Source: Halorubrum sp. (GTDB lineage: Archaea; Halobacteriota; Halobacteria; Halobacteriales; Haloferacaceae). From it: a stretch of 41,764 bases of DNA. The notes beneath the pieces are model-generated. The model saw only the letters and a list, made by a program, of their open reading frames with translations. It searched no databases and had not been told where the DNA came from. The position numbers and the translations under genes were made by a program. Shown piece after piece: positions 24,017 to 41,692 of the stretch (positions are counted from its first letter, which is position 1; every line of letters begins with the position of its first letter). The stretch is taken from assembly GCA_040405695.1 (NCBI GenBank), contig JARVCL010000090.1:1-41764 (forward strand), given 5' to 3'.

Positions 24017-25591
24017 ATGGCTCCTTCACGCCCACACGTCCGTCCACCGACAACCGATGACGTCCGTGAGTACGCAACTCGACTGGGTCTGTCGCTGTCG
24101 GACCCGGAAATCGAAACCTACACGAAGCTCATCGCGTCGAAGCTCGGGGTGATCCGTGCACTCGATTCGCTTCCCGACGGTGAGACCTCCCCGATCGCCG
24201 CAGTCCGGGACAGGGGACACCTTCCGGACTCGGCTGCGGACCCGCACAACGCGTTCATTCGTCGATGTACCGTCGAGAGCTCAGACGACGGTCCGCTGAG
24301 CGGGATGACGGTTGGCGTCAAAGACAACATCGCGGTCGCGGGCGTCGAGTTGACAGCCGGAACGAAGGCGCTTGAGGGGTATGTTCCGTCGTTCGACGCG
24401 ACAGTGGTGACACGGTTGCTCAAGGCAGGTGCCACGGTGACCGGGAAGACTAACCTCGACGAGCTGGCGGTTTCCGGGAGCGGGGAGCCAACCGCCACCG
24501 GCGTGATCCGGAATCCACATAGTGACTCACATCTGGCGGGGGGATCCTCCGGCGGTTCCGCCGTCGCAGTCGTCAACGGGGACGTCGACATCGCGCTGGG
24601 AACCGATCAGGCGGGGTCGCTCCGCACGCCGGCCTCTTGGTGTGGCTGTGTTGGATTCAAACCGACGTACGGGCTCGTTCCTTACACCGGTTGTCTACCC
24701 GGGGGACCGACGTATGACCACGCCGGACCGATCACGCGTACAGTGTCGGAGTGTGCAGACGTGTTGTCGGTCCTCGCCGGACCGGACGGTCGGGACCATC
24801 GGCAACCGTTCGATGGTCCGGCGACCGTGGACCCAGTACCGGACGACTACACGGTCTTCCTTGAGAAACCGGTTTCTGAATGTTCCATCGGCGTCATTCA
24901 GGAGGGGTTCGGTCTCGAACACAGCGAGCCGATAGTGGACGAGACCGTCATGGAGGCGATGGACGCCGTCGCCGACCAGGGAGCGGACATCGAAGAGGTG
25001 TCGATCCCGTGGCACGACCATGGGGTGGTTATCTGGCTCGGCGTGGCGTGGAGCGAGAGCGCCGCGCTGCTACGGGACAACGGACAGGGTTACTACACTG
25101 ACGGACAGTACTTCACGCAGTACCTCCGGAAAATGGAGGAAGCACTCGAGACGCGCAGCGACGAGTTCGCCCCCACGGTCAAATCGAAGCTGCTTCTCGG
25201 GGAGTACCTCCGGGAAACCTACGGCGGCTACTACCACGCGAAAGCACAGAACCTCCGTGGACGACTGTGTGACGCATACGACGAACGATTGGCAACATAT
25301 GACGTCCTCGCACTTCCCACTACGCCGACCACTGCATTCGAACGGCGGGAAGACCTGACCACGACTGAGCTCGTTGAGCGCGCACAGGGGAAGAAGGGAC
25401 GAACACAGAACACTATGCCGTTTGATATGACAGGTCACCCAGCGATTACTATCCCATGCGGTCGGGACGACGACGGATTACCGATCGGACTCATGCTCGT
25501 CGGGAACCGGTTCGACGACGGGACCGTGCTCGCGGTCGCCGACACGCTCGAAAACGAGATCGCGTACGACCCTTCGCCTCCGTCACACTGA
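24017..25591 (+). CDS. Amidase signature family amidase
   Basis: VKDN (catalytic Lys), GGSSGGS, GTDQAGSLRTPAS (nucleophile Ser), TGHPAITIP; TTTAAG about 28 bp upstream. Confidence 0.92.
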   Translation: MAPSRPHVRPPTTDDVREYATRLGLSLSDPEIETYTKLIASKLGVIRALDSLPDGETSPIAAVRDRGHLPDSAADPHNAFIRRCTVESSDDGPLSGMTVGVKDNIAVAGVELTAGTKALEGYVPSFDATVVTRLLKAGATVTGKTNLDELAVSGSGEPTATGVIRNPHSDSHLAGGSSGGSAVAVVNGDVDIALGTDQAGSLRTPASWCGCVGFKPTYGLVPYTGCLPGGPTYDHAGPITRTVSECADVLSVLAGPDGRDHRQPFDGPATVDPVPDDYTVFLEKPVSECSIGVIQEGFGLEHSEPIVDETVMEAMDAVADQGADIEEVSIPWHDHGVVIWLGVAWSESAALLRDNGQGYYTDGQYFTQYLRKMEEALETRSDEFAPTVKSKLLLGEYLRETYGGYYHAKAQNLRGRLCDAYDERLATYDVLALPTTPTTAFERREDLTTTELVERAQGKKGRTQNTMPFDMTGHPAITIPCGRDDDGLPIGLMLVGNRFDDGTVLAVADTLENEIAYDPSPPSH

Positions 25592-25640: not shown

Positions 25641-26387
25641 TTACCGATAACTGATCCCGCCGTCCGGGTGGAGCGTGCTGGCAGTGATGAACGAAGACTG
25701 ATCGCTTGCGAGGAACTCGATTGTATCAATAACATCATCCGGGGTTCCGTTCCGCGGTAACACCTGATAATCGGCTATGGTGTCGAGGTACTCCTCGCCG
25801 AGCTGTTGGCTCGCCTCGGAGGTCACCAGCCCGGGAGCCACGGCGTTGACCCGCACGCCGTCTTCTCCTACCTCGTTCGCTATCGCACGCGTGAGCGGCG
25901 GGATCGCTCCCTTCGACGTCACGTAGTGTGGGTACCCAGTAACCCCGTTGTACATCACCGCAGAGGCGATGTTGATAACGCTGCCTGATCCCTGCTCGGC
26001 CATGTGTGGAACCATCTGTTTACAACAGATGAAGACGCCAGTAACATTCACGTCCAGCACGGAACGCCACTCCTCGACCGGAATCTCGTCGAAGCTCCGG
26101 TCGCGCCCCTCGAGCAGCGGCTCGTACATCGCAGCGTTGTTGATCAACACGTCTATGGTTCCGAACCGGTTGAGGACCGCGTCGGTGAACTCGCTCACGC
26201 TCTCTTCGTCGGTCACGTCGGTCTCCATGCCCATCGCCTCAGCGTCCAGTCCTTCGGCAACTGTCGCCGCGTTCTGGATGTCTGCGATCGCGACCGACGC
26301 ATCCTTTGACGCGAATCTTTCTGCCATCCGCTTTCCGATACCGCTTCCGCCACCCGTCACCACGACGGTGTGCTCAGGGAACTCCAT
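25641..26387 (-). CDS. Short-chain dehydrogenase/reductase (SDR)
   Basis: TGGGSGIG, NNAA, YVTSK (YxxxK), VNAVAPG; likely start MEFPE at 26387. Confidence 0.92.
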   Translation of the reverse strand: MEFPEHTVVVTGGGSGIGKRMAERFASKDASVAIADIQNAATVAEGLDAEAMGMETDVTDEESVSEFTDAVLNRFGTIDVLINNAAMYEPLLEGRDRSFDEIPVEEWRSVLDVNVTGVFICCKQMVPHMAEQGSGSVINIASAVMYNGVTGYPHYVTSKGAIPPLTRAIANEVGEDGVRVNAVAPGLVTSEASQQLGEEYLDTIADYQVLPRNGTPDDVIDTIEFLASDQSSFITASTLHPDGGISYR

Positions 26388-26455
26388 CGTGAAGATCTCA
26401 CACACGGCCGGAACATAAAACCACGAGGAAATCAACGCTCCAGACGTGAACGGGG

Positions 26456-27286
26456 TCAGTCCTTCCATTTGAACGCGTACGCCTCAACGGGTTTGAGAAC
26501 GACGTACTCCACCACGAGAATCACGATGACGAACAGCATGAGATACGCCAGCACCGATTCGATCTCACCGATCTGGTAGTGGTACCGGAACCGCGTCCCG
26601 AGTCCTTCCTGGAGACCGAACACCTCCCCGAGAACGACGATCTTCCAGACCATCCCGAACACGTACCGATAGCTGCCGAATATATACGGAAGTAAATGTG
26701 GCACGTACACGTCTCTCCACAGCTGCACCGTGGAGGCCCCGAACGACTGCGCCATTGTGATCAAGTCCGTATCGATGTCCTGTGCACCCTGCCACATATT
26801 CACGATTCCAAACGGCGTCGACGCAATCACGACGGCAATGATGACGCCGCGTTCGTTGAATCCGAACCATACCATGCTGAGCAGGATTATCACGACGGTC
26901 GGTATCGTCATCGCGAACGGTAACAGACTCGATAACCCCTCTTCGAACGGGCGTGATGTCGTCATCAGTACTCCCGCGGTGACGGAGGCAGCCAGCGCAA
27001 GGAGGCTCGCGAGAACCGCGCGCCTCAACGAGTACTGCAGGTGATCGATGCCGGTAAGCCCGTGAAAGTCCTCAGTCAATGCAACCGTGACCGTTGTCTC
27101 GAACGTCATGACTGGCCGCGGCAGCGTATTCGGGTCACCGAGAACAATCGCGAGCGCGTCCCAAAGAGCGATTAGTGCTAGGATCGGTACGAAGACTTCC
27201 AAAATAATCCGGCGTGTCCGATCCCGCAGCATTCCCCACGACGGCAGCAGTTCTGAGGCCAACCGGTCGCCCGTACCGGTGCTCAT
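26456..27286 (-). CDS. NitT/TauT-family ABC transporter permease
   Basis: Hydrophobic helices; MAQSFGAS..LWRDVYVP and WK.VV.GE..G...GLG motifs. Confidence 0.88.
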   Translation of the reverse strand: MSTGTGDRLASELLPSWGMLRDRTRRIILEVFVPILALIALWDALAIVLGDPNTLPRPVMTFETTVTVALTEDFHGLTGIDHLQYSLRRAVLASLLALAASVTAGVLMTTSRPFEEGLSSLLPFAMTIPTVVIILLSMVWFGFNERGVIIAVVIASTPFGIVNMWQGAQDIDTDLITMAQSFGASTVQLWRDVYVPHLLPYIFGSYRYVFGMVWKIVVLGEVFGLQEGLGTRFRYHYQIGEIESVLAYLMLFVIVILVVEYVVLKPVEAYAFKWKD

Positions 27287-28050
27287 GGATCACTCCGTTC
27301 GATCCGTTCCATATGCTCGAAGAACGTATCCATCAGTGTCGTCTCGATCTCCGAGAGCCGGGGATCGTCCGGTTCACGAGGGCGGTCGCATTCGATCGTC
27401 GCACGGTTGAACACGTGCCCTTCGGTATCCAGAAACAGGATCTTATCCGATAAGTAGATCGCCTCACTAATGTCGTGAGTAACGAATAACACAGTTTTTC
27501 CAGTCTCCTGCCACAGATCGATGAGATCGTCACGGAGCTGGTGGGCCGATATCTCGTCCAACTCGCTGAACGGCTCGTCCATGAGTAACACGTCGGGATT
27601 GACCGACAGCGCCCGAGCAATGCCCACACGCTGTCGTTGCCCACCCGACAGACGAAGGGGATAGCTGTCGCGTTCGTCCCCAAGTCCGACCATCGATAGC
27701 GTGTCGGTGATCCGTCGGTCGTGCTCGTCCGACGGGACTCCCTGCGCTCTCATCGCGAACTTGATGTTCTCACCGACGGTCCGCCAGTCCAACAGTCTCG
27801 GCTCCTGAAACACGTAGGCGATCGGGAGATCCGACGAGGATGTAAGGTTTCCATCCCGACGTATTTTTCCCGTGTCCTGTGACAACAGTCCCGCGAGCAC
27901 GTTCAAAAGTGTCGACTTTCCGCATCCCGATGGACCCATTATGGTGGTGAACGACCCCTCCTCGATCCGCATGTCGATATCATCCAACGCGACGACGCGG
28001 CGGTCTCCGTCCTGAAACGATTTACTGAGGTTCTCGATCTGAATCGTCAT
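27283..28050 (-). CDS. NitT/TauT-family ABC transporter ATP-binding protein
   Basis: GPSGCGKS, VFQEPRLLDWRTV, LSGGQRQR, MDEPFSELD, VTHD. Confidence 0.93.
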   Translation of the reverse strand: MTIQIENLSKSFQDGDRRVVALDDIDMRIEEGSFTTIMGPSGCGKSTLLNVLAGLLSQDTGKIRRDGNLTSSSDLPIAYVFQEPRLLDWRTVGENIKFAMRAQGVPSDEHDRRITDTLSMVGLGDERDSYPLRLSGGQRQRVGIARALSVNPDVLLMDEPFSELDEISAHQLRDDLIDLWQETGKTVLFVTHDISEAIYLSDKILFLDTEGHVFNRATIECDRPREPDDPRLSEIETTLMDTFFEHMERIERSDP

Positions 28051-28051
28051 G

Positions 28052-28882
28052 TCATCTCACCCGTTTCGTTTCCGCGGCGTCGCCAGGACGCCAGCCAAAA
28101 TAATTGGTTTCGATACGATGTAGCGCGCGCTCGAGCAGGAACATTGCCAACATCATCGGGACGGACCAGACGATAATCATGTCCGCTCGCATCGCCTCGT
28201 AGTAGATGTTGATCACGTATCCGATCCCGGACGTCGCCCCAAATATCTCGGCCACGAGCGAGAGCTTCCAAGACAGCGCCACGGCGAGTCGCGCAGAGGC
28301 GAACACGAACGGCATGAGTGACGGGATCAACACGTGCCGCCATTTCATCGCTAGTCCGGCATCGAACGCGTTTGCCATCTCGAGGATGTCCTCGTCGATC
28401 GACTCCGCCCCCTTCCACACGTTCACCGTGATATAGGGGGCGACGATGAGAACCATGACGACGACCATGACGAGGTACGTCGTGATCCCGAACCACATGA
28501 CGGTGACGAACGCCCAAACGACGGACGGAAACGCTAAGACGATCATGACGGGTGCGGTGAGGTATCGCCCTCGTTTCGCCCATCCCATGACCGTCCCCAG
28601 CGTCACGCCGATCACCAACGAGATCACGCTCGCGATGGCGATCCGTTGAATCGATATGGACGCGTGTGTCAGGAACTGATACTGGCCTCCCCCGCTAACG
28701 ACGACCAAGACTTGCTCAGCGACGTAAATCACGCCAGGGAGGTCGCGCTGGGCGAAGAACAGCGAGGCAGTCTGCCAGCACAACAGGAATACCACGAACG
28801 CGATCACCGGTGCCATAGGGAGCACGCTCCCAACGCGGCGTCCCGCTCCCCGGAGTTCGATCGTACCGTCGAATGTGGACAT
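28052..28882 (-). CDS. NitT/TauT-family ABC transporter permease
   Basis: Hydrophobic helices; EMANAFDA..HVLIPSLMP and WKLSLVAE..G..SGIG motifs. Confidence 0.88.
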   Translation of the reverse strand: MSTFDGTIELRGAGRRVGSVLPMAPVIAFVVFLLCWQTASLFFAQRDLPGVIYVAEQVLVVVSGGGQYQFLTHASISIQRIAIASVISLVIGVTLGTVMGWAKRGRYLTAPVMIVLAFPSVVWAFVTVMWFGITTYLVMVVVMVLIVAPYITVNVWKGAESIDEDILEMANAFDAGLAMKWRHVLIPSLMPFVFASARLAVALSWKLSLVAEIFGATSGIGYVINIYYEAMRADMIIVWSVPMMLAMFLLERALHRIETNYFGWRPGDAAETKRVR

Positions 28883-28900
28883 ATCGGCGGTGAAACGGAG

Positions 28901-29974
28901 TTATATCCGGTCCTCGATCTCTTCGTGGGTGATGAACGTCTCCTCTGCCCCCGCAAACCCGGTGATCCCACCGTCTTCGAGGGTCAGATTCAGGAGTTCG
29001 GCGTTCGCATCGATCACGCTCTGGTTCCACTCGGTCGGGAATATTTCCTCGTCGTCGACGAGCTCTTGAATGACGTCCAGTTCCGCCTCCTCATCGAGAT
29101 CCAGCCCGGCGACCGTCGCGTACTCCTCGATGGCAGTATCGAAGTCCTCGCGGAACCCTTCGACGGCCTCAACCCAACCGTCCCAGAAGTCGAGCACGGC
29201 TTGGGGGTTTTCCTCGAGGAAATCGTCGTACGTTCCGAACAGGGTGACCTGCCCGGGGTGTCCCGTACGTTCCGTCCACTCCTCGACCGGAGAGAAGATG
29301 GACTCGAAGCGATCGTCCGCGAGCGCTGAGACGGTGAACCCGGTGAACATCAGCACCGCGTCGACCTCGCCGTCGATCAGGAAGTCGTACAGGACTGCGG
29401 AGTCCGTGTCAACCACTTCCTCGGGATCGTCTTCCAAGTCGAAGTCGTACATATCCGCCCACATGGCCGAGAACGTGCGGGTGGTTCCGGAGCCGAGCCC
29501 GGCCACGCCGAGGGTCCGCCCCTCGAGATCCGGAACGGACTCGATGTCGGAATCGGCGTGAGCGAACACCTGATTAATCTCGTTGAGATGGGGCGCGAAC
29601 ACGCTGATCGGCTCCCCGTCGTCGACGAACTCCGCGAGGTCCTGTGCGGAACCCTGTCCGATACCCTCCACGTCGCCGCTCGTGAAGCCACGGGCGTACT
29701 GGCCGAACCCGGTGATGTCGTAGGTGACGTTCAGTCCACGGTCGTTCCAGGCGTCTAAGTCGCGGCCGTAGTAGTGAACGAGGTTGTACAACGACGCTTC
29801 TGGAAGCAGTATGTGAACGTCCGTTGCACCGGAGCCGTCGGCACCAGAGGAGTCCTCTCCGGTACATCCCGCAAGCACTCCTCCGACGGCCGCACCACCG
29901 GCGGCAAGCAGACGCCGTCTCGTCGTGTTCCGTCCGGTATCGGTTCGATCGGTTTCCGATTGTCTGTGGATCAC
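28901..29974 (-). CDS. ABC substrate-binding lipoprotein (SsuA/NMT1/TauA-like, Tat-exported)
   Basis: TRRRLL twin-arginine signal, LAGC lipobox, IESVPDLEGRTLGV..GSGT motif. Confidence 0.85.
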   Translation of the reverse strand: MIHRQSETDRTDTGRNTTRRRLLAAGGAAVGGVLAGCTGEDSSGADGSGATDVHILLPEASLYNLVHYYGRDLDAWNDRGLNVTYDITGFGQYARGFTSGDVEGIGQGSAQDLAEFVDDGEPISVFAPHLNEINQVFAHADSDIESVPDLEGRTLGVAGLGSGTTRTFSAMWADMYDFDLEDDPEEVVDTDSAVLYDFLIDGEVDAVLMFTGFTVSALADDRFESIFSPVEEWTERTGHPGQVTLFGTYDDFLEENPQAVLDFWDGWVEAVEGFREDFDTAIEEYATVAGLDLDEEAELDVIQELVDDEEIFPTEWNQSVIDANAELLNLTLEDGGITGFAGAEETFITHEEIEDRI

Positions 29975-30055
29975 AATTACGATTCACCACTCTTCTTTGG
30001 ATATAGTTTACGGACCGGGCAACGTAACGTCTATAACAGTACATTTGGTGAATTC

Positions 30056-30091: not shown

Positions 30092-30203
30092 AGGGTCACG
30101 TCACGGCCGGACCGGGATCGGATCCGAATACGGAACTACACGCACTCGCCGTTCCGACCGACACCAAAGCATAACTCCGTAGGTTCTGTACGTATGCTCA
30201 CTA

Positions 30204-31676
30204 ATGACGATACGCCACGGTACCCATCTCGGTGAGCTCGGATACGTCGTGGGGAACGAGCGTCGAACGAGCACGGACGTGATACGCGTGTACGATCCAG
30301 CAACGACCGAGGAGATCGCGACAGTTCCGGAAGCGGGCCCGGACGGCGTCGATGTCGCCCTCGAGAACGCCGTCGAGGCGAACGCGATGTGGACGGAACG
30401 CGACGGGCGGGAACGCGGACGGTTGCTGTCGGCGATCGCCGACACGATACGGGAGAACGCGGACCGTCTGGCCGCGATCGAGACGCTTGAGTCAGGACGG
30501 CCGATCACCGAGTCGGGGTTTCACGTCGAGGGAGCAGCGAACTACTTCGAGTACTTCGCGGGCCTAGCTGACAAGATCGAGGGCGAACAGATCCCGCTGC
30601 CGGGGGATCGGTCGCGGATCGATTACACGGTTCGAGAGCCGTACGGCGTCACTGGCCACGTCGTTCCGTGGAACGCGTCGATAGCGCTCGCGTCCCGAAG
30701 CTTCGCTCCGGCGCTCGCGGCCGGTAACGTCGTGGTTGCGAAGGTGTCCTCACCCGCACCGCTCTCGGTGTTGGAGCTCGCGGAACTGGCGGGCGACGCC
30801 GGACTCCCCCCCGGCGTATTGAACGTCGTGACCGGAAGCGGATCGACGACCGGCGACGCGCTCGTTGGTGACCCACGGCTCAACGCGGTCGAGTTCACCG
30901 GCTCGACCGGCACGGGAATTCGGGTGATGAAGCGGGCTGCCGAAACCGTCAGTCCGGTCCACCTCGAGCTCGGTGGGAAGGGTGCGAACCTCGTGTTCCC
31001 CGACGCGGATCTCGACGCCGCAGCTCGAAGCGTGATCGACACGTTCCAGAACGCCGGACAGATCTGTTACGCGCCGACGCGGCTATTCGTTCACGAAGAG
31101 ATCTACGACTCGTTCGTCGCCGCCGTCATCGAGAGGGTCGAATCGATGACGGTCGGCCCCGGGTTCGAGGACCCGGACATGGGTCCGCTCATCTCGTCGG
31201 ATGCCCTCCAAGACGTCATCCGGGCCGTCGAAACCGCCGAACGCGACGATGCGCGTGTACTCACCGGCGGATCCGTCGCTCGCGAGGAGGGACACTTCTA
31301 CGAGCCAACGCTGCTCGAGAACGTGCCGGATGACGCGGCGCTCTCGTGTGAGGAGCTCTTCGGCCCCGTGTTCACCGTGTACGAGTTCGAAAGCACCGCC
31401 GAGGCCGTGGATCGAGCGAACGACGTGCAGTACGGACTGAACAATGTCGTCTGGACGACCGATCTCACGCGTGCACACGCCGTCGCGGGCGCACTCGAGA
31501 GCGGGACCGTGCAGGTGAACGAGTATCCTGTGCTCTCACCTGCAGCCCCCTCGGGCGGCATGAAACGGAGCGGCATCGGTCGGTCGAAAGGTCAACAGGC
31601 GATCGAAACGTTCACTCAGCGGAAGAATGTCGTCGTCTCGCTACCTCCCGGCGAGCGATTCGACGATCTCCACTGA
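30204..31676 (+). CDS. Aldehyde dehydrogenase family protein
   Basis: VPWN, FTGSTGTG, LELGGK, NAGQIC (catalytic Cys), EELFGP, GGMKRSG. Confidence 0.93.
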   Translation: MTIRHGTHLGELGYVVGNERRTSTDVIRVYDPATTEEIATVPEAGPDGVDVALENAVEANAMWTERDGRERGRLLSAIADTIRENADRLAAIETLESGRPITESGFHVEGAANYFEYFAGLADKIEGEQIPLPGDRSRIDYTVREPYGVTGHVVPWNASIALASRSFAPALAAGNVVVAKVSSPAPLSVLELAELAGDAGLPPGVLNVVTGSGSTTGDALVGDPRLNAVEFTGSTGTGIRVMKRAAETVSPVHLELGGKGANLVFPDADLDAAARSVIDTFQNAGQICYAPTRLFVHEEIYDSFVAAVIERVESMTVGPGFEDPDMGPLISSDALQDVIRAVETAERDDARVLTGGSVAREEGHFYEPTLLENVPDDAALSCEELFGPVFTVYEFESTAEAVDRANDVQYGLNNVVWTTDLTRAHAVAGALESGTVQVNEYPVLSPAAPSGGMKRSGIGRSKGQQAIETFTQRKNVVVSLPPGERFDDLH

Positions 31677-31770
31677 TCGCCGCCGACGAACGACGTCTCT
31701 TCCGGAGCAGTATCCGGGTGACCCATACATTTATTCGCGTACTGACGATCACTCACATAGGAGATAGCGA

Positions 31771-33882
31771 ATGGAATTTCGAATCGGGACCGACATCGGT
31801 GGGACCTGTACAGACTCAACCGTGATGACCGCTGATGGGGAGGTGTATATCGGAAAGGACCTGACGACGTATCCGGACTTCTCTGGCGGCATCTTCGACT
31901 CGCTTGCCGACGCTACCTCCGAAATGGATGTCGGCCTCGAAGAGCTGTTAGCGAACACGGAACTGTTTCTCCATGCGACTTCAGTCGGCGAGAACGCCCT
32001 GTTCGAACGCGAGGGGGCGGAGACGGGTCTGATCACGACGGCCGGGTTCGAAGAGACGCTTCACGCGACACGGGGGGGATACGGTCGATGGTCCGGACTC
32101 CCGTTCGACCGGATCAAGGACGTCATAAACTCGGAGAAACCCGAACCGCTGATACCCCGCGATCGGATCGCTGGCATCTCCGAACGGACCTACCGTGACA
32201 GGACGATCCGTGAACTCGACGAATCGGAGGTGGTAGACGCCGCGGATCGGCTCGTCGACGCGGGCGTGGATGCCATCGCCGGCTGTCTGCTCTGGTCGTT
32301 TACCTCACCGGAACACGAACGACGACTCAAAGAGATCATCGCGGAGCGGTATCCGGAGCTGTACGTGACGGTGTCTAGTGACGTCTCGCCAACAATGGGC
32401 GAGTACGAGCGAACCGCCACGTCAGTTCTGAACGCGTATCTCGGCCCGACAACCGAACGATACCTCAGCGGACTCCGGACGGGATTGGAGGACCGTGGAT
32501 TCGACGGCACGCTATTGTTGATGTTCGCACACGGCGGGTTGGTGGGCCGTACAGACGCCATCGAGCGACCCGTCGGACTGATCGAGTCCGGACCCGTCGC
32601 GGGCGTGCTGGGCAGCCAGTTCGTCGCGAACCAGCGATCCGCAGAGAACATCATCTCGACGGATATGGGTGGAACGACGTTCAAGGTTGGCGTCATCGAC
32701 GGCGGCCGGATCGAATACGCCGACGAACCGATGGTCGGTCGCCACCACTATCAGTTCCCGAAACGGGACGTCGACTCCATCGCGGTCGCCGGCGGCAGCA
32801 TCGTCTCGATCGACGAGGAAACCGGTGTCCCGACCGTCGGCCCGGAAAGCGCGGGCTCGGATCCGGGGCCGGTCTGTTACGGCTCCGGTGGTACGCAACC
32901 GACCGTCACCGATGTCGACCTCATCCAGGGATACTTCTCGCCAGAGTACTTCCTTGGGGGAGACGTGGAGATGGATTCGGACGCGGCATACGACGCGTTC
33001 GAGCGTGAGGTCGCGACGCCTCTCGGAAAGGATGTCGAAACCGCGGCCGCCGACATCTACAAGCTGACGAACTCCGTCATCTCCGATCTGATCCGTGAGA
33101 TGACCGTCGAGAAGGGGATCGACCCGCGCCAGTTCACCCTCGTATCGATCGGCGGTGCGGCCGGCATGCACGCCGCCTCGTATGCCCGTGAACTACGGAT
33201 CCCGGAGGTGCTCGTGCCGTACACCGCATCCGTCAATAGCGCACTGGGGCTGCTCTCGACGGACGTTACCCACGAGTTCATCGAGGTCGAAACCTTGACT
33301 CCCCCGTTCGACATCGACCGGATCAACGAGATATTCGCCGATCTCCGGCGTGAGGCGGAGGAAACGCTCGCGGACGGGGGCTTCGCCGGCGAGGAGATCC
33401 GGATCGAACGGTCGATCCAGATGCACTACCAACGCCAGGTACACGAGCTGTTGACCCCGGTCGAGACGGACGGGGAGCTGACGGCTGATTCGCTCGATGC
33501 GACCCTCGATCGGTTCGAGTCGTTGTACGAGCGACGCTACGGGGCGGGGTCCGCGTACACCGAGGGCGGGATCGAGATGACCGAGTTCCGCGTCCGTGGT
33601 GTCGGGCCACTTTCGACTCCGAGTCTGAACCGGGACGACCCGTCCGAACCGGCGGCGTCCACGGCTCACATCGGAACGAAACGGATGCAGTTCGAGGCCG
33701 CGGACGGCCGGATCGAGGCCGATCTATACGCCTTCGACGAGCTCGATCCCGGCGACGAGATCCGTGGCCCGGCAGTGATACTCACGCCGGTCACGACGAT
33801 CGTCGTCAACCCGGGCGACGTCGCTCGGGTCGACGCGTACAGCAACGTTCGGATCAGCATTATGGAGGAAACCGATGAGTAA
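31771..33882 (+). CDS. hyuA: Hydantoinase A / 5-oxoprolinase ATP-binding subunit
   Basis: DIGGTCTD, EYERTAT..LNAY, ESGPVAG, DMGGTT, GPESAGSDPGPVCY, GGAAGMH. Confidence 0.92.
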   Translation: MEFRIGTDIGGTCTDSTVMTADGEVYIGKDLTTYPDFSGGIFDSLADATSEMDVGLEELLANTELFLHATSVGENALFEREGAETGLITTAGFEETLHATRGGYGRWSGLPFDRIKDVINSEKPEPLIPRDRIAGISERTYRDRTIRELDESEVVDAADRLVDAGVDAIAGCLLWSFTSPEHERRLKEIIAERYPELYVTVSSDVSPTMGEYERTATSVLNAYLGPTTERYLSGLRTGLEDRGFDGTLLLMFAHGGLVGRTDAIERPVGLIESGPVAGVLGSQFVANQRSAENIISTDMGGTTFKVGVIDGGRIEYADEPMVGRHHYQFPKRDVDSIAVAGGSIVSIDEETGVPTVGPESAGSDPGPVCYGSGGTQPTVTDVDLIQGYFSPEYFLGGDVEMDSDAAYDAFEREVATPLGKDVETAAADIYKLTNSVISDLIREMTVEKGIDPRQFTLVSIGGAAGMHAASYARELRIPEVLVPYTASVNSALGLLSTDVTHEFIEVETLTPPFDIDRINEIFADLRREAEETLADGGFAGEEIRIERSIQMHYQRQVHELLTPVETDGELTADSLDATLDRFESLYERRYGAGSAYTEGGIEMTEFRVRGVGPLSTPSLNRDDPSEPAASTAHIGTKRMQFEAADGRIEADLYAFDELDPGDEIRGPAVILTPVTTIVVNPGDVARVDAYSNVRISIMEETDE

Positions 33883-36058
33883 TTCGACCCACGACGACGA
33901 CCTTCGCATAGACAGTATGGACCCCGTAACGTTCCAGATCATCAAACACCGCCTGGAACGGATCACGGACGAGGCGGTCGAAGCGCTCAAACGCGTTTCG
34001 GGCGCGCCGAACACGAACGAAGGTCACGACCTCATGGTTGCATTGTACACCAGCGACGGTGACCTGCTCACGGGGGGCGTCGGCTTTCTCCATCACTACC
34101 TCGGCGCGTCCGAGGCGACGAAACACGTCATCGATCGGTTCGAGGGCGAGATCAACGAGGGGGACATGTTCCTCCTCAACGACCCTTACACTGCGGCGTT
34201 ACACCCGCCGGACGTGTACATCATCTGTCCCATCTTCTTCGAGGGGGAGCTGAAAGCGTTCTCCGCGAGCTTCGTTCACGTCGCCGACATCGGGGCCGTC
34301 GATGCGGGCGGGTTCGCGCCGAACTCGACGTCCGTGTTCCACGAGGGGTTCCAGACCCCGGGTCTCAAGCTGATAGAGGAGGGTGAGGTTCGCCAGGACG
34401 TGCTCGACACGATACGGAACATGAGCCGGGATCCGGGGATGATAGAGCTCGACCTTCGGTCGGAGATCGCCGCGAACAACGTCGCACGGGACCGGATGCG
34501 AGACCTCATGGCCGAACACGGGGCCGACACGATCGAAACCGTGGGCAACGAGCTGATCTCGCAGTCGTCGAAACGGTTCAAAAAGCGGCTTCGGGAGCTC
34601 CCCGACGGACGGTTCGAGGAGCGTCAGTATCTCGACTCGGCTCCCGAAGACGAGATGTTCACGGTGCAGGTGGCCCTCGAGAAACGGGGCGACTCGCTCA
34701 CCTTCGACTTCTCGGGGACGAGCGGGGAGAGCGAGTACGGACTCAACTGTACGCGGATCGCGACGGTTGGTGGGGTGCTGGCTCCCGTCTTCCCGCTTCT
34801 GTGTCAGGACATGACGTGGAACGACGGGATCATCGATGCCGTCGACGTCAACGCCCCCGAGGGGACCATCGTGAACGCCGAGCGTCCCGCACCGATCTCC
34901 ATCGCGACGATCGCCACGCTCCAGATGTGTAACTCGCTGTCGACGCTCGCGGTGTCGAAGCTGCTCGGTGCCAGCGAGGAGTACGCCGATCGAGCGACGG
35001 GTGTCTGGCACGGGGCTCACTGTCACGTCTCCGTCGAGATCGAGTACGAGGACGAAACACACGTCGAGGGGATAAGCGACACATTCGCCGGTGCCGGCGG
35101 TGCGAGAGCCTTCGCCGATGGCGTCGATCTCGGCGGAGAGGTCGTCAACGTCGTCGCGCGGTGGGGGAACGCCGAGCGCCACGAGGCGGTGTTGCCGCTC
35201 ATGTACCTGTACCGGCAGTTCGTCGAGGACTCCGGGGGGCCGGGCGAGTTCCGCGGTGGCGTCGGTCACGAGTACGCCCTCGCTCCGATCCCGTTCGACG
35301 ACGTGGAGCAGGTCGACGTCGTCAATCTCGCACGTGGTGTCGAGATCCCCAACTCGACGGGCGTGTTCGGCGGCTATCCTGGCTGTAACATCGAGTACGC
35401 GATGTATGACGACGTCCCGCTCGGATCGGTCGAGACGTTCCCGCCGACGAAGACCCAGCTCTCACAACGGGGCGATCCGCGGTACACCCAGTGGGGCGTC
35501 GAGACGATCGAGGAGGACGGCGTGTTCGCCGTGCGCCTTCCCGGTAGCGGCGGGTACGGCGATCCGCTTGACAGGGACGCGAACGCGGTCGCAGCCGACG
35601 TCGTGGACGGAAAGATCGCTCCCGAAACCGCGAGCGAGGTGTACGGCGTTCCGGTCGGAGACGACGGCACGCCCTCCGAGGAGGTGTCGACCATCCGTGA
35701 CCGGAAGCGGTCCGCACGCCTGGAGGCGGCGGATCCGCCGGAACGATCCCTGGACGTGGACGTGACCGGGACGTCGAAGACGGCGTATCGGCTCGGAGCC
35801 AACCTGTCCGTCGAACGGGTCGAGGAACGGGCATATGTCCGCTGTGACGGTTGTGGGTCCGTCCTCGCACCCGCCTCAACGAATTGGAAAGAGTACGCGA
35901 GCGTCGCCGAACGCCCGGTCTCGCAGGCTGGAACCAACTCGTCGGCACCCGAGGGATACTGCCTGCGGGAGTTCTACTGTCCCGATTGCGGGACGCTTCT
36001 CGACACGGAGGTCGCCCACGAGGACGATCCGCCGCTGGTGAGCCAGCTATCGCTATAA
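33875..36058 (+). CDS. hyuB: Hydantoinase B / oxoprolinase subunit with fused C-terminal acetone-carboxylase-gamma-like Zn domain
   Basis: DPVTFQII, NDPY....HPPD, HVADIG, EG, DSGGPGEFRGG, GGYGDPLDR; tail CDGC..NWK..LREFYCPDCGTLLDTE. Confidence 0.9.
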   Translation: MSNSTHDDDLRIDSMDPVTFQIIKHRLERITDEAVEALKRVSGAPNTNEGHDLMVALYTSDGDLLTGGVGFLHHYLGASEATKHVIDRFEGEINEGDMFLLNDPYTAALHPPDVYIICPIFFEGELKAFSASFVHVADIGAVDAGGFAPNSTSVFHEGFQTPGLKLIEEGEVRQDVLDTIRNMSRDPGMIELDLRSEIAANNVARDRMRDLMAEHGADTIETVGNELISQSSKRFKKRLRELPDGRFEERQYLDSAPEDEMFTVQVALEKRGDSLTFDFSGTSGESEYGLNCTRIATVGGVLAPVFPLLCQDMTWNDGIIDAVDVNAPEGTIVNAERPAPISIATIATLQMCNSLSTLAVSKLLGASEEYADRATGVWHGAHCHVSVEIEYEDETHVEGISDTFAGAGGARAFADGVDLGGEVVNVVARWGNAERHEAVLPLMYLYRQFVEDSGGPGEFRGGVGHEYALAPIPFDDVEQVDVVNLARGVEIPNSTGVFGGYPGCNIEYAMYDDVPLGSVETFPPTKTQLSQRGDPRYTQWGVETIEEDGVFAVRLPGSGGYGDPLDRDANAVAADVVDGKIAPETASEVYGVPVGDDGTPSEEVSTIRDRKRSARLEAADPPERSLDVDVTGTSKTAYRLGANLSVERVEERAYVRCDGCGSVLAPASTNWKEYASVAERPVSQAGTNSSAPEGYCLREFYCPDCGTLLDTEVAHEDDPPLVSQLSL

Positions 36059-37489
36059 TGATGAGACATCCGTTCGGGTTGGAAGGCCGGAACGACGTCG
36101 GAGCGCCGTGGCAGCCGTCCGAACCTGCTCGTACAGATCGTGTGGATCGGTTCGTAACCCGCTCACTGACCCGTCCTCATAGACGACCTCTCCTTCACAG
36201 ACGACGAGATCGACTTCCGAGCCGAGCGTCTGGTACACGACGGCCGAGACGATGTCTGTGGCCGGGGTTAGCTGTGGCGCGTCCATGTCAATACAAACCA
36301 GATCCGCACGTTTTCCCTCCTCAATCGATCCGAGCTCCGCGGATCGTCCCATCGCCGACGCCCCCTCTATCGTGGCCATGTCGAGAACTGCCTGTGCCGA
36401 CAGCACGCCGGGGTCAAGCGAGTGCCCCTTGTGTGCGAGCGCTATCAATCGCATGTCTGCGAGGAGGTTCACGGAGTCACTGAGCACCGAGTTGTCCGTA
36501 CCGAGTCCGATGGTGACCCCCGCCCGTCGCATCGAGGGAACCGGTGCGAATCCGCTTGCGAGCTTCATGTTTGACGGGATGTTGTGTGCGACCGCGGTGT
36601 CCGTCTTGGCAAGCAGACGAACGTCCTTGTTCGAGACTTGTACGCAGTGACCTAGCAGCGTGTGTTCACCGAGATATCCGATGTTATTCAGATATTCGAC
36701 GCTGGAGAGCGGGCCTGACTCCTGTTCGGGAGCCTCTGAGACGTGTGTCGTCGTCATCACGTCGTGTCGTTCGGCGAACTCGACTGCGGCACGCAGTCCC
36801 TCCGTGGTCATACCCTCGACAATAACCGGGGCGATCCAGATCTCTTGCCGGTTCCCGCGCCCGTGATGCGTGTCGTGAAGCGACTCGACGTGTTCTATCC
36901 ACTCGTCTGTCGCCGCGGTGTACCGTTCCTGTGGCGGATGGCCCACGTCCGGCTCCTTGGCAGTGAACTTTTTTATCAGCGAGCGAAACTCCTCGTCTGC
37001 CGGTAGGTCACGGATCCCTCTCGCATACGCGCTCCGGATCCCTAGCTCCTCGTAGATGTCGAGCTTCCGTTCGATCGACTCCACGTCCTCGATCGGTATC
37101 TCGGCGTCGTTCTCAACGATGGTAGTGATCCCAGCCGACAGCGCCTCAACGCAGTACAGCTCGGCGGCCAGCTCGTGGTCGGACGGCGACATCTTCGCCA
37201 TTCCGGGCTGTTTGACATTGAAGAGCCAGTCATATAGTCCGCGGCCCTCGTTCCCGGCTCCCCGAAGCAGCACGTCGGAGACGTGAACGTGGGTGTCGAT
37301 GAGTCCGGGGATCACCACGTGGTCCTCGGCGTCGACGCGACGGTCCACTTGTCGGTCGATGTTGGCGCTTGGGCCAGCTTCCACCCGCGTGATCGTGCCG
37401 TCGTCGACCACGACGGTTCCCCGTTCGATCACGTCCCGTGACGGGTTTTGTGTGAGTATCGTTCCGTTCTCTATGACGAGGGTTTCCAT
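36053..37489 (-). CDS. AtzA/TriA-like amidohydrolase (s-triazine chlorohydrolase/deaminase clade)
   Basis: HVH, HVSE, GHCV and GTDN ligand motifs; LLRG..GRxLYDWLFNV, LYCxEA..GITTI.EN, KDVRLL, DSVN and GSIExGKRADL follow AtzA/TriA over the full length as recalled. Confidence 0.8.
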   Translation of the reverse strand: METLVIENGTILTQNPSRDVIERGTVVVDDGTITRVEAGPSANIDRQVDRRVDAEDHVVIPGLIDTHVHVSDVLLRGAGNEGRGLYDWLFNVKQPGMAKMSPSDHELAAELYCVEALSAGITTIVENDAEIPIEDVESIERKLDIYEELGIRSAYARGIRDLPADEEFRSLIKKFTAKEPDVGHPPQERYTAATDEWIEHVESLHDTHHGRGNRQEIWIAPVIVEGMTTEGLRAAVEFAERHDVMTTTHVSEAPEQESGPLSSVEYLNNIGYLGEHTLLGHCVQVSNKDVRLLAKTDTAVAHNIPSNMKLASGFAPVPSMRRAGVTIGLGTDNSVLSDSVNLLADMRLIALAHKGHSLDPGVLSAQAVLDMATIEGASAMGRSAELGSIEEGKRADLVCIDMDAPQLTPATDIVSAVVYQTLGSEVDLVVCEGEVVYEDGSVSGLRTDPHDLYEQVRTAATALRRRSGLPTRTDVSSL

Positions 37490-37579
37490 CGACCCATAGT
37501 ATACGCCAGCCGATCATAAGGATTCGGTAGCGTATCGCATGGCCTGGACCACTCATTCGTGCCGAGGCGACGGCAGCGA

Positions 37580-38938
37580 CTACTCCGGTCTGGGAACGAC
37601 GAACACGCGGAGATCGTTGACGTTGGTCCCGGTCGGGCCGGTTTTCAGGAGGGCGTCCGCGTCGTCGAGTGCCGGAAACACGTCGTTCCGGTCGAGAGCG
37701 GCCCGCGCACGGTCCTCGGAGACGGTGTCGGCATCGACGACGGCACCGGCGACGTCGGTCGAACCGTCGATTCCGTCGGTGTCCACGCTGCCGACGACGA
37801 TGTCGGCGCCGTCCAGCTCGACGCCGGCGCTCAACGCGAACTCCTGGTTCGGTCCTCCCTTGCCGTGGTCCTCGGCAAGCGTAACCGTCGTCTCGCCGCC
37901 GGACAGTAGGACGACGGGGGGTTCGGTCGGCGACCCAGTCTCACGGCACTCCTCGGCGATGGCGGCATGTGTGAGCGCCGATTCCTGGGCCTCGCCTTGG
38001 ACCCCGGCGGCGAGCAGCAACGATTCGTATCCGTGGTCGGTGGCCGTTTCCGCGGCGGCTGTAAGCGCGTTTCGGCCGTTTCCGATGACGTGAGACGAGA
38101 TACGATCAAACGCCGTATCGGAGGTAGTCGGAGTTTCGGGGACCTTGCCGTCGGCCCCGGCACGGAGGTGTTCACGGACGCTCGTTGGCAGCTCCAGATC
38201 GTATTCGTCCACCACCAAGAGCGCATCCCCATATGTGGTCGGGTCGGGAGCGGTCGGGCCGCTCCCGATCACGCCGAGATCGTCCCCCACGACATCACTG
38301 AGCACAAGGTTCACGACTGATGCAGGTGACGATCGTCGAGCGAGCCGTCCGCCTTTGATCGCGGAGCAGTGTTTGCGGACCGCGTTGATCTCGTCGATCG
38401 GTGCGCCGGACGCGAGCAGTTCCGTCGTGAGCCGTCGGAGATCTCCCACCCCGATCGAGTCAACCGGTGCGGCGAGAAGCGCGCTCCCGCCACCCGAGAT
38501 CACTGAGATGATCAGGTCATCGGCACCGGCCGCGTCGACTCGCTCGAGGAGGCGTTCGGTCCCCGCGACGCCCCGTGGGCTCGGCAAGGGGTGATCACCC
38601 GGGACCGTTTCAACGTCCGCCGTTTCCGCCGGGGTATCGGTGACGACGACCCCGCCGGCGAGCCGATCCCCGAGCCGTGTCTCCAACGCTGCCGCCATTT
38701 CTCCCGCCGCGTTACCTCCACCGATGACGATGACGTCGCCATACGCCGAGAGATCGTACGTCACGCTGGTTCCGTCGACCGCCGTGATCGTGAGCGATTC
38801 ACCGTGAACCGATACCGCATCGGCGACGATCGCGCTCGGATGTGCGGCCTCGATCCCTGCGAGGAGACAGTCGACGGCGAGCTCGTGAGCCGGCGTTCGA
38901 GAGAGGGATTCCCGGGTCTCGTCTGAAGGTCCGTCCAT
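37580..38938 (-). CDS. Glycerate 2-kinase (MOFRL/GckA/TtuD family)
   Basis: HPLP, ISGGGSAL, INAVRKH.S.IKGG, SDVVGD...IGSGPT, GGETTV, GGPNQE, TDGIDG, TGPTGTNVND; likely start MDGPS at 38938. Confidence 0.9.
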   Translation of the reverse strand: MDGPSDETRESLSRTPAHELAVDCLLAGIEAAHPSAIVADAVSVHGESLTITAVDGTSVTYDLSAYGDVIVIGGGNAAGEMAAALETRLGDRLAGGVVVTDTPAETADVETVPGDHPLPSPRGVAGTERLLERVDAAGADDLIISVISGGGSALLAAPVDSIGVGDLRRLTTELLASGAPIDEINAVRKHCSAIKGGRLARRSSPASVVNLVLSDVVGDDLGVIGSGPTAPDPTTYGDALLVVDEYDLELPTSVREHLRAGADGKVPETPTTSDTAFDRISSHVIGNGRNALTAAAETATDHGYESLLLAAGVQGEAQESALTHAAIAEECRETGSPTEPPVVLLSGGETTVTLAEDHGKGGPNQEFALSAGVELDGADIVVGSVDTDGIDGSTDVAGAVVDADTVSEDRARAALDRNDVFPALDDADALLKTGPTGTNVNDLRVFVVPRPE

Positions 38939-39021
38939 GTTCGCCTCTGACCGGGAGGGATAATCAATGTTGGAGGCCGTGTCGCACCCCGAAAAACGGC
39001 ATGTCGACGATGATGAACCGA

Positions 39022-40152
39022 TCACGCATCGAACGGCACGTGCCGCTCGATGGTCCCGATCACGTCGCTCGGATTGATGTCGAGACCGTCGATAGGGACG
39101 GGTTCGACCGTTCGCGTGGGCCACGCGCCGGTCGTCGTCAGTGTCTTCGTTCGGTCGCCCGCGATCAGGTGTGTGTCCTCGCTTTTCGTCCCCTGAACGG
39201 TCGGGTTCCACGCGTACGCCATCGGTTCGCGGACCGGTTCGGTTCCGGCGGGCGTCGCGACCCATTCACGTGCCGCGTATCCGGTCACGCCGCCCTGGTG
39301 GTGGTGTCGCCACTCCCCCTCGAACCCGAGCGTGTCGTACGCCTCCCGGATCGCCGCGAACACGTCCCCGGACGTCCCGGTTCCGTCAAGGACGCCGAGT
39401 GCCGCGGCGCGAGTGGCGGCGAGGGCGGTCGCCTCGATGCGCATCGCGGCTCGGTGTCGGTCCAGTAGCCACTCGGGCGGATCGAAGGCGACGGTTCGGG
39501 TGAGGGAGGCGTATAACCCGTCGCGTTCGGCGGTCACGGAGACGAGCACGTAGGACCCGAGCAGCGCGTCCGTCGGCGTGAAGTGACGATACGACCCCGC
39601 ACGCTCGGCGCCCCCGACGAGCACGACCGGGGCGTTCATGCCACCCGACGAGAGCTCGGTCTCGATCGCCCTCGCGACGTCACGTTCGAGGTCCTCGGCG
39701 TCGAGCTCCCGACAGACCTTCTCAACGGCGGCAGCGGCGTCCCGACCGAGCAGTCGATATCGATCGACGCCGTGTTCGGAAAGCGGGTAGCGGAGTCGGT
39801 CGATATCGATCGTATCGAACCCTGGAACGTCGAAATCCGCCGCTGCGGGCATCGGTGACCGGTTCGTGACCGCCTCCACAATCCACCGTTCGTGCCAAGG
39901 GAACGACTCCACGGAGACGACGTCCGAAAGTTCCTCTTGACGGAGTCGCTCCGCCTCGACGTTGCTCGTGACGACGCGGAACGTGCCGTCGTATCCCGCC
40001 GCCGCGATGCCGATATCCGCGTCCCGATCGATTACGTTGCTTCCGCCCACGAGCCAGGTGAATCCACCGGGACGCGCGAACCAGAGGGCCTCAAGATCTT
40101 GGCGATCGAGATAGTCGTCCAGACGACTGGCGCGAAGCGAAGGATCAAACAC
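39022..40152 (-). CDS. M24-fold protein with non-canonical metal site
   Basis: Creatinase-like N-domain; YRHFTPT, GLYASLTRT, HHQGG, WNPT, KSEDT. Confidence 0.75.
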   Translation of the reverse strand: MFDPSLRASRLDDYLDRQDLEALWFARPGGFTWLVGGSNVIDRDADIGIAAAGYDGTFRVVTSNVEAERLRQEELSDVVSVESFPWHERWIVEAVTNRSPMPAAADFDVPGFDTIDIDRLRYPLSEHGVDRYRLLGRDAAAAVEKVCRELDAEDLERDVARAIETELSSGGMNAPVVLVGGAERAGSYRHFTPTDALLGSYVLVSVTAERDGLYASLTRTVAFDPPEWLLDRHRAAMRIEATALAATRAAALGVLDGTGTSGDVFAAIREAYDTLGFEGEWRHHHQGGVTGYAAREWVATPAGTEPVREPMAYAWNPTVQGTKSEDTHLIAGDRTKTLTTTGAWPTRTVEPVPIDGLDINPSDVIGTIERHVPFDA

Positions 40153-40349
40153 TGATGGACACTCAACAGTATTGATCAGGCTCCTCGGATATTAATCGTT
40201 CGTCGAGTCAAGGAGCCCCCTCGCCACCCGGCAGGGTATCGAGTAATGAGTTCGTCCGCTACGCCTTTGACATCCGCCGGCAAAAGATGGTCGTTTAAAT
40301 TCGGGATGTTGCAGATGTTCAAATACATATTATTTCATGGTCAATTCGG

Positions 40350-41040
40350 GGTCGCGTTAAGTTAGTGAATGAGGCGCTCGACTTCAGAGTGCTTATGGCC
40401 GAAATCGAACGCCTCAGCGAACGTACCGCGTGGATCGACTTGTCGTTTGTGGAGCGAGATCGAACACCGCGCTGGGCGATTGAAGTAGGGATTCGGTGTC
40501 ACTTGGCCGGTATGTCACTACGTGAGGTAAGTAAACATCTCGAGGGGTTTGGGATCGATCGGAGTCACGTCGCCATTCATAACTGGGTTCATAAAGCCGA
40601 TCTACAGCCGATCTCAACCGTTTCAGAGGATCAACTCGCGGTTGACGAAAAGATGATCCGCCTCCACGGCCAGAAGTTCTGGCTGTACGGCGCGGTTGAT
40701 CCGTATACAAACGAGATCCTTCACGTGAGCCTCTATCCGACCGCAAATAAACAGACGACGCGATGGTTTCTCACCAAGCTACACCGGCGCTATCAACTCG
40801 ATACCGTGGAGTTTCTCGTCGATGACGCAGATCATCTCAGATCAGTCCTCGCTGAAGACGGCTATCGATTTCAAGTTATTCGGCATGGAAATCGGAATGC
40901 TATCGAACGTGTCTTTTAGGAAATAGAACGGCGAACATCATCGTTTGCGAATAGTTTCAGCAATGTCGCGCTAGAGACAGCTCAAAATTGGCTCGAAGCT
41001 GTCGCCGTCTACCACAATTCACGCCAAACTTAACGCGACC
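40350..41040 (+). mobile_element. IS6-family insertion sequence (691 bp), complete ends
   Basis: Perfect 14-bp terminal inverted repeats GGTCGCGTTAAGTT (40350-40363) and AACTTAACGCGACC (41027-41040); 8-bp direct repeat CAATTCGG at 40342-40349 and 41041-41048. Confidence 0.93.
40395..41033 (+). pseudogene. IS6-family DDE transposase with internal amber stop
   Basis: HLAGMSLR, SHVAIHNWVHK, VDE, WLYGAVDP, VDD, NRNAIER; TAG at 40917-40919, then the frame continues EIERRTSSFANSF...AVYHN to TAA 41031-41033 inside the right inverted repeat. Confidence 0.9.
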
Positions 41041-41185
41041 CAATTCGGCGATCCAATTTAGTCAATTACGTCGGTCAGGAAGTACCACTCTTTGGTTCGA
41101 GACAGTGATGACTGTGATGCCGATAATCTCATATACACTGAGACACGATCCACTAAAATTAGTTGCAGGACGACAAGATGCTTGT

Positions 41186-41692
41186 ATGAGCAAGAACCTC
41201 TCGCCCGCGGTCACGCTGACGCGTGAGCAGAAAGAGCAGCGGCGATTGGCCGCTGCTCAGGAACTTCTGGAAGGTGAGAAGACGCAAACGCAGATTGCCG
41301 AGGACCACGGTGTGACGCCGGGGGCAGTTTCCCAATGGAAGTCAACACTCGAAGAAGAGGGGATAGAGGGGCTGAAAACCACCACTGACGAGGGCAACCA
41401 AGGTCCTGATTATGCTCTTGATGAGCAAGACAGAGAGCAACTCGTCGAGTTGCTCGAAGACGGGGCCCAAGCACACGGTTGGGAAATTGATCTCTGGACA
41501 TCCAAGCGTGTGGCTACGCTGATCGAACAGGAATTCGATATCGACTACACTCCTCGCCATTGCTCGCGGATTCTCCGCGAGCTTGGCTACCGGCCGGTCA
41601 AACCCAGAGAAGGCGCTGCTGAGAAAGATCCTGAAGAGAAGCGTCGCTGGCTCAACGAAGAAGCCTCAGTCGATCACATCGGATTTGAGTGA
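41186..41692 (+). pseudogene. IS630-family transposase N-terminal (HTH/winged-helix) part, truncated
   Basis: RRLAAAQEL, IAE..GVT..AVSQW, GAQAHG....WTSKRVA.LI..EF.I.Y......LRELGY...KP...A.E.D; no DDE domain follows. Confidence 0.8.

Follow-up and report, generated by a model that had tools for sequence, protein, structure and literature searches.

The triazine hydrolases AtzA and TriA are a textbook case of recent enzyme evolution, and the available text of a 2023 account still describes their progenitor as not known (PMC7615792). Can a haloarchaeal gene tell us where this pair came from, or what its family naturally acts on? The gene in question lies on the minus strand of the window, by which we mean the whole 41,764-nucleotide stretch analysed (Halorubrum sp., contig JARVCL010000090.1). 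An earlier note had read its product as a member of the natural family from which AtzA and TriA arose, in a native catabolic context that may reveal the original substrate. Our comparisons indicate that the protein is a cousin within that family, neither an ancestor nor the nearest kin of AtzA and TriA. As for its function, we narrowly favour a metal-dependent hydrolase that would act on a natural purine-like ring compound, plain guanine excepted, and strip it of an amine; this would be an entry step of a nitrogen-scavenging island.

36053..37489, minus strand: AtzA/TriA-family amidohydrolase of the haloarchaeal branch (P0001), 478 aa, placed by sequence, fold and tree

The open reading frame (ORF) is intact, and we refer to its product as the window protein. 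Among the 23 PDB sequences matched at E ≤ 1e-10, AtzA of Pseudomonas sp. ADP (4v1x) ranked first with 323 bits, against 159 for the runner-up. Identity extends over the full length, with 188 of 482 alignment columns identical (39%), the same value for AtzA (reference sequence from plasmid pADP-1) and for the melamine deaminase TriA. The AlphaFold2 model (mean pLDDT 84; unreliable at residues 77–92) also found its best fold match in 4v1x, with a TM score of 0.90 and a Z score of 50.6, compared with 46.8 for the next structure. A Pfam PF01979 match (165 bits) and the modelled (β/α)8 barrel with a composite β domain place the protein in subtype III of the amidohydrolase superfamily, on the scaffold that TriA also has. 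The AtzA/TriA motifs that the earlier note had quoted are all present in the translation, in register with AtzA across residues 1–469. ESM Atlas returned generic amidohydrolase clusters and nothing more specific for this protein.

An ordinary methylthioadenosine/S-adenosylhomocysteine (MTA/SAH) deaminase of the MtaD type is extremely unlikely. MtaD structures (4f0r, 1p1m) share the fold and catalytic core, and the protein does match TRZ/ATZ-type NCBIfam models, but all of these fell far below their curated cut-offs (271 against 522, 255 against 609 and 223 against 540, among the best 5 of 66). The score to the MtaD structure 4f0r was 159 bits, half that to AtzA; the protein falls outside the MtaD-containing outgroup in the tree described below, and its genome holds other MtaD candidates.

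To place the protein, we searched with it and with AtzA. The first search listed 120 of 168 matches, at 45–94% identity, and every organism-named match among those listed was haloarchaeal. The AtzA search listed 120 of 1086 matches, namely two TriA-type proteins and 118 others at 41–72%; named family members include Paenibacillus, Cohnella, Microbacterium, Acidimicrobiia and a cyanobacterium. TrzA of Rhodococcus, which we take to be a family member about 40% identical to AtzA, was not found by name among the matches. From an alignment of 397 proteins, 13 shorter than 420 aa were removed, and FastTree on the remaining 384 rows recovered one clade of 272 (support 1.0), comprising 131 haloarchaeal rows (1.0) and 141 others, not necessarily one clade, that include AtzA and TriA. 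IQ-TREE on 69 hand-picked rows (LG+G4) separated the AtzA/TriA family from MtaD- and GuaD-like outgroups with support of 100/99 and recovered the haloarchaeal branch at 100/100. AtzA and TriA, together with P0277 and P0278 (100/100), lay inside a 19-row non-haloarchaeal clade (100/100); P0277 and P0278 are 72% and 57% identical to AtzA, among the matches listed. An approximately unbiased (AU) test, on a group chosen after the tree was known, rejected a single clade of the haloarchaeal rows with AtzA, TriA, P0277 and P0278 (p=0.017). The haloarchaeal branch is not the immediate sister group of AtzA/TriA, and 127 of the 136 non-xenobiotic rows outside it score better against AtzA than the window protein does.

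A second character agrees with the tree. Peat et al. described, in the available part of PMC4356373, an insertion between strands 3 and 4 (AtzA residues 160–183) in AtzA only.

36836..37024, minus strand: β3–β4 segment with the family insertion, 63 residues (60 in AtzA; outgroup median 44)

Scored as a β3–β4 segment of at least 55 residues, the insertion is present in all 131 haloarchaeal rows and in 139 of the 141 other family rows, compared with 7 of 112 outgroup rows. It marks the whole AtzA/TriA family. The supported clade and the shared insertion together make the window protein a true family member, but a cousin of AtzA and TriA. The claim of membership therefore stood; the notion of shared stock has to yield to a separate haloarchaeal branch, with AtzA and TriA nested elsewhere. 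At 39% identity, the protein is far from the roughly 98% expected of AtzA or TriA proper, and it carries Asn333/Leu336 where AtzA has Asn328/Ser331 and TriA has Asp328/Cys331. The AtzA gene is flanked by IS91 elements, whereas the window gene sits in a catabolic island, on a separate branch, and encodes a more acidic product (Asp plus Glu 16%, compared with 12% in AtzA). The haloarchaeal branch is genuine, well supported and new within a known kind of enzyme. In the open literature we found no account of haloarchaeal relatives of AtzA and none of a natural AtzA/TriA progenitor, although the sequence-network supplements of the two Drexler papers could include members.

As a diverged cousin, the window gene has limited bearing on the origin of AtzA, for which P0277 and P0278 are the better objects. 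In the available text of PMC3387218, Noor et al. (2012) had too few sequences to decide whether the AtzA or the TriA state came first, and in that of PMC7428800 Wackett and Robinson take the deaminase-first order as given. We compared the 20 best-scoring AtzA relatives at the nine sites that distinguish AtzA from TriA in the published comparison (84, 92, 125, 217, 219, 253, 255, 328 and 331). The TriA residue occurs in all 20 at sites 84, 92, 328 and 331, in 18 at 125, in 15 at 217 and in 12 at 255, whereas the AtzA residue occurs only at 253 (2/20) and 255 (3/20); sites 219 and 253 mostly hold neither. P0277 has the TriA residue at eight of the nine sites and the AtzA residue at 253. Because all 20 nearest relatives carry Asp328 and Cys331, the deaminase state looks ancestral, and the deaminase-first order gains phylogenetic support from these sequences. 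It is conceivable that P0277, too, has adapted to a man-made compound.

Several close variants surround this transition. P0275 carries all nine published TriA residues and P0273 eight of nine. P0273 (L002:6001-7425, Klebsiella quasipneumoniae plasmid NZ_CP084773.1) keeps Ile253 and differs from AtzA at the eight other sites; it has the same nine residues as P0277 and a zero-length branch in the tree, so that at these sites it matches the inferred AtzA/TriA ancestor. The downstream neighbours of its gene are an amidase, a nucleoside deaminase and an IS91 element. On a Klebsiella pneumoniae plasmid (NZ_CP084848.1, L003:3379-4803), a TriA-type variant with Thr217 and Ile253 appears from its residues to be a natural intermediate between AtzA and TriA; after its gene come those for an NCS2 permease and a nucleoside deaminase. 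Genome samples for non-haloarchaeal family members gave 0 of 301, 0 of 351 and 1 of 401. The sole locus found (L229), from a more distant sub-branch, contains an NMT1-type ABC importer, Rieske oxygenases and a glyoxalase-family dioxygenase.

We then turned to the active site, where the ligand assignments follow the available part of PMC4356373.

37274..37291, minus strand: His67-x-His69-x-x-Asp72, two metal ligands, with Asp in place of Gln71 of AtzA/TriA (from the alignment)
37211..37213, minus strand: Lys93, at pocket position 92 (Val in AtzA, Leu in TriA; from the alignment)
36734..36745, minus strand: His249-x-x-Glu252, metal ligand and predicted proton-transfer Glu (from the alignment and the published mechanism)
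36482..36496, minus strand: Asp332-Asn333-Ser-Val-Leu336, catalytic Asp followed by neither the TriA nor the AtzA pair (from the alignment)

A complete mononuclear subtype III ligand set with its HxxE glutamate is predicted from these residues (His67, His69, His249, Glu252, His281 and Asp332). The five metal ligands, which AtzA shares, and the glutamate (Glu246 in AtzA numbering, used for the following counts) are invariant in all 131 haloarchaeal rows. The same rows carry Asp71 (129/131), Lys92 (128/131), Glu125 (126/131), Asn328 (130/131) and Leu331 (105/131), while rows outside the branch mostly carry Asp328 (128/136) and Cys331 (105/136). In column 246, 23 of those 136 rows have Gln instead of the catalytic Glu. 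Relative to AtzA, the window protein keeps Glu246, Asn328 and Glu125, but has Asp for Gln71, Lys for Val92, Gln for Tyr93, Gly for Met155, Arg for Phe157 and Leu for Ser331. Position 92 lines the AtzA pocket (PMC4356373, available part), so Lys93 would be expected to face the substrate. Around an intact Asp-His-Glu triad, the haloarchaeal branch has a pocket of its own, marked by Asp72, Lys93, Asn333 and Leu336.

The earlier note had aligned its GTDNSVL motif correctly, with Asn333 at AtzA position 328 and Leu336 at 331. The match of Asn333 to AtzA holds by position; since Asn is fixed across the haloarchaeal branch while the kin of AtzA have Asp328, it is a trait of the branch and no trace of AtzA. 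Similarly, Leu85 in GLYDW does align with site 84, where TriA has Leu, but Leu84 is found in 96 of 112 outgroup rows and is uninformative. Of 34 pocket residues, the window protein keeps 12 of AtzA's and 13 of TriA's. With only 12 of the AtzA residues retained, its substrate need not equal that of the TriA ancestor. The strong form of the earlier proposal, in which this protein stands for the AtzA/TriA stock and has retained the original substrate, is very unlikely: it has the family, the insertion and the length of AtzA/TriA on its side, but it conflicts with the AU test and with the pocket, where P0277 and P0278 match TriA at 29 and 21 of the 34 residues.

The same residues raise the question of whether the protein is a deaminase at all. 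In AtzA, Asn328 has no part in releasing an amine, and the window protein might instead displace a better leaving group (halide, thiol or alkoxide) or open a ring. We regard this as improbable. Asn at 328 and Glu at 125 are as in AtzA, and the Asp328/Cys331 pair, the proposed protonator of the leaving amine in TriA, is lacking; but Ser331, the halide stabiliser of AtzA, is replaced by Leu, and the invariant Glu252 corresponds to the HxxE glutamate, which in GuaD- and CodA-type enzymes protonates the leaving amine without a Cys, while a glutamine polarises the ring (PMC12828455 and PMC13054789, available parts). Replacement of that Gln, which follows strand 1, inactivates GuaD (PMC12828455, available part). 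Members of the GuaD cluster, such as the N2,N2-dimethylguanine hydrolase NdmH (the AtzB progenitor) and 8-oxoguanine deaminase (3hpa), share the Asp-His-Glu triad and mononuclear site with the window protein, at about 27% identity or less, but only they have the essential Gln. The pocket of the haloarchaeal branch thus lacks the glutamine to which recent work assigns the key role in the specificity of such deaminases.

Genomic context also bears on function. In 401 haloarchaeal-class genomes, the gene was present in 30 and uricase in 36. The gene occurred in 25 of the 36 uricase-positive genomes, compared with 5 of the 365 uricase-negative ones; the double-positive genomes span five families, and in 20 of the 25 the gene lies within 15 kb of uricase. 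The 11 uricase genomes that lack the gene are expected if it serves an accessory step. We do not rely on a Fisher test of this co-occurrence because kin are not independent. The 30 gene copies were taken with about 9 kb on either side. Xanthine-dehydrogenase-like or urate-pathway genes occur at 18 of these loci, and 14 directly adjoin a dehydrogenase subunit gene. A further two have a xanthine permease only, three another molybdo-enzyme with a BMP-type (nucleoside-family) ABC importer, two (L056 and L058) molybdo-enzyme parts with Amidohydro_2 and cytosine-deaminase-like genes, and four hydantoinase A/B inside the locus or just beyond it; one stands alone. Four named plasmids show a purine context in their own annotation and are counted separately, as they may overlap the sample. 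This conserved setting leaves a short list of substrates to consider, and the branch brings the question of what the AtzA/TriA family naturally acts on within reach of a test. By analogy, it suggests an accessory role like that of NdmH and 8-oxoguanine deaminase in the GuaD cluster.

Eight of the loci (L046, L053, L055, L057, L059, L060, L062 and L065) have xanthine-dehydrogenase-like Mo and Fe-S subunits, and no FAD subunit gene was found among the ORFs picked within about 9 kb. Searches elsewhere added little: a scan of 2 of 64 parts of a genome collection gave 80 loci, none above 36% to the query, and a scan of 1 of 64 parts of a metagenome collection gave 80 loci with one in the branch (L148), which carries xanthine-dehydrogenase-like genes, ABC genes and a second amidohydrolase.

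A non-orthologous but ordinary guanine deaminase is improbable. The 14 loci adjoining xanthine-dehydrogenase-like genes would suit it, as would genome G045, which has uricase and this gene but neither a close match to the TPRF-type deaminase described next nor a match above the guanine deaminase cut-off. Of the 36 uricase genomes, 35 carry that second deaminase, with Gln71 and a TPRF motif that we take to be linked to guanine deaminases, and the guanine deaminase model gives it 237 bits, compared with 99 for the product of this gene. This makes an accessory substrate more likely than guanine. The TPRF-type enzyme is already present in the other 24 of the 25 double-positive genomes and in the window's own genome (contig C27, 68%), and the site whose Gln is needed by GuaD is Asp in nearly all haloarchaeal rows. 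The TPRF-type family is named 5'-deoxyadenosine deaminase (NF005557; L051:7747-9162 and, in the window's genome, C27:6952-8217); in haloarchaea it may be the real guanine deaminase, although it scores below the guanine deaminase cut-off.

A pterin deaminase that feeds a pterin–lumazine–xanthine route, and hence travels with purine genes, is unlikely but deserves mention. PDB entry 2paj, which we take to be of the isoxanthopterin deaminase type, scores just 74 bits against the window protein. Such a route exists in Cupriavidus LA-1 (PMC12391406, available part), and the pocket Lys could bind a pterin carboxylate. The neighbours at the two loci L056 and L058 speak for it, but there the cytosine-deaminase-like gene makes the better candidate for a pterin deaminase, in line with the CDA-like role in the available text of PMC12391406, and no UbiD-type decarboxylase was seen among the annotated neighbours. 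The available part of PMC13197243 offers no usable pterin-deaminase motif.

How does the window itself fit the purine reading? In the IQ-TREE phylogeny, the window protein belongs to a 7-row sub-branch (100/99), apart from a 15-row purine sub-branch (100/100) whose members are 47–53% identical to it. Its neighbours are of another kind.

33875..36058, plus strand: convergent neighbour, a hydantoinase B/oxoprolinase subunit whose C-terminal domain is acetone-carboxylase-gamma-like
31771..33882, plus strand: hydantoinase A/oxoprolinase subunit
30204..31676, plus strand: aldehyde dehydrogenase; 65–66% orthologues near the gene in genomes G247 and G386
26456..29974, minus strand: ABC importer whose binding protein is NMT1/THI5-like; G386 has orthologous sets on the same contig
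25641..26468, minus strand: short-chain dehydrogenase; orthologues of 64% in G247 and 71% in G386
24017..25591, plus strand: amidase-signature amidase, above the NF005565 cut-off; homologues near the gene in G247, G323 and G386

The ORF and the convergent hydantoinase-B gene share 6 bases at the stop of the latter, and the tail-to-tail arrangement with hydantoinase A/B recurs in G247. All three other sub-branch copies with genome context (G247, G323 and G386) have a 62–69% hydantoinase-B orthologue within about 10 kb and amidases nearby; the hydantoinase A/B genes beside the gene in G247, G323 and G386 are orthologues at 61–74% identity. Molybdo-enzymes, an arginase-family hydrolase and glycine cleavage genes also occur in the G247 and G386 islands, together with Rieske oxygenases in the former and a serine hydroxymethyltransferase gene in the latter. 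The island reads as a breakdown route for a nitrogen heterocycle. Orthologues of 15 of the 29 tested window genes (58–77%) lie on one G386 contig, and the window is likely a mobile, plasmid-borne catabolic island. A lumichrome-pathway reading of the island was dropped: the terms hydantoin, oxoprolinase and ATP-dependent do not occur in the available main text of PMC12746152. The expectation that the native context would reveal the substrate was borne out in part, in that it narrows the substrate class; it names no compound, and the clearer purine context belongs to the sister sub-branch.

For the window sub-branch, a deiminase of creatinine or a similar small cyclic guanidine would also suit the neighbours, as deimination would give a hydantoin for the ATP-dependent hydantoinase. 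The tail-to-tail pairing with hydantoinase A/B, the glycine cleavage genes and the serine hydroxymethyltransferase are in keeping with this. We nevertheless hold it to be improbable, because a search of G247, G386 and the window's genome located sarcosine-oxidase-like and isochorismatase-family genes on other contigs or not at all, and the hydantoinase B resembles acetophenone carboxylase (183 bits) more than it does the solved hydantoinases (162 and 149).

We return to the removal of an amine from a purine-like ring. As the haloarchaeal branch lies mostly beside purine-breakdown genes, amine removal from a natural nitrogen-rich ring compound is the likely activity. By analogy with subtype III deaminases, Asp332 would deprotonate the metal-bound water, with His281 relaying a proton, and the activated water would attack an amidine or guanidine carbon of the ring; Glu252 would protonate first the ring and then the leaving amine. 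More tentatively, Asp72 and Lys93 may take over the reading of the substrate from the lost Gln71. In the sister sub-branch, the oxo product would feed xanthine dehydrogenase and then uricase, whereas in the window island the ATP-dependent hydantoinase pair and amidases might open and dismantle the oxo-ring, again a weaker suggestion. There is a precedent in AtzB, which arose from N2,N2-dimethylguanine hydrolases (PMC13054789, available part).

A number of observations weigh against this proposal. The purine link belongs to the sister sub-branch and not to the window's own, and no uricase turned up in the window's genome (81% complete) or in G247, G323 or G386; moreover, related genomes in the sample of 401 are not independent samples. 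Deaminase activity is itself a prediction. Under the model of Noor et al., TriA depends on Cys331 and Asp328 for protonation of the leaving amine (PMC3387218, available part), and by that analogy Asn and Leu at these sites could not do so in the TriA fashion. The Gln after strand 1 that serves 1,6-addition in the GuaD cluster is absent, replaced by Asp72, and by sequence alignment no Gln falls in the columns of AtzA 153–158, after strand 3, where the CodA cluster has it for 1,4-addition. Because the model is unreliable at residues 77–92, the geometry of Asp72 and Lys93 is read from the alignment alone. Finally, a Halorientalis plasmid carries a 58% hydantoinase-B orthologue among acyl-CoA genes, and no amidohydrolase of this kind was found in the 32 kb around it (about 15 kb on each side), so the pairing is not obligatory.

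A broader picture can be sketched, though we think it doubtful. The AtzA/TriA family may be old nitrogen scavengers of modified purines or pterins, AtzA having been recruited from nucleobase clean-up as AtzB was. The haloarchaeal Asp/Lys pair would then be a third way of activating a ring in subtype III, beside the GuaD and CodA glutamines, and the window gene would head an undescribed pathway with an ATP-dependent ring-opening enzyme.

Some further features of the window were noted. Positions 30000–40300 were covered in 29–30 of 30 bins in four runs from soda lakes or lakes; these came from three studies, none of them marked as a possible source, and no RNA run was listed among those with the stretch. 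A promoter scan returned no sites, and two terminator-like sites appeared at the same level as in shuffles. The contig (C90, 1–41764) has a GC content of 60.5%, compared with 65.2% for the genome, and IS6 and IS630 transposases lie at 40365–41692. A second amidohydrolase at 5376–6845 (plus strand) has His250-Ile-Ala-Ser, with Ser in place of the HxxE glutamate, and Glu at the Gln71 site; a 76% orthologue of it lies near the second family copy in G386. At 39022–40152 (minus strand), a 376-aa ORF that matched nothing in Pfam or NCBIfam shows weak similarity (23%, E 0.019) to the M24 peptidase encoded at 4078–5265.

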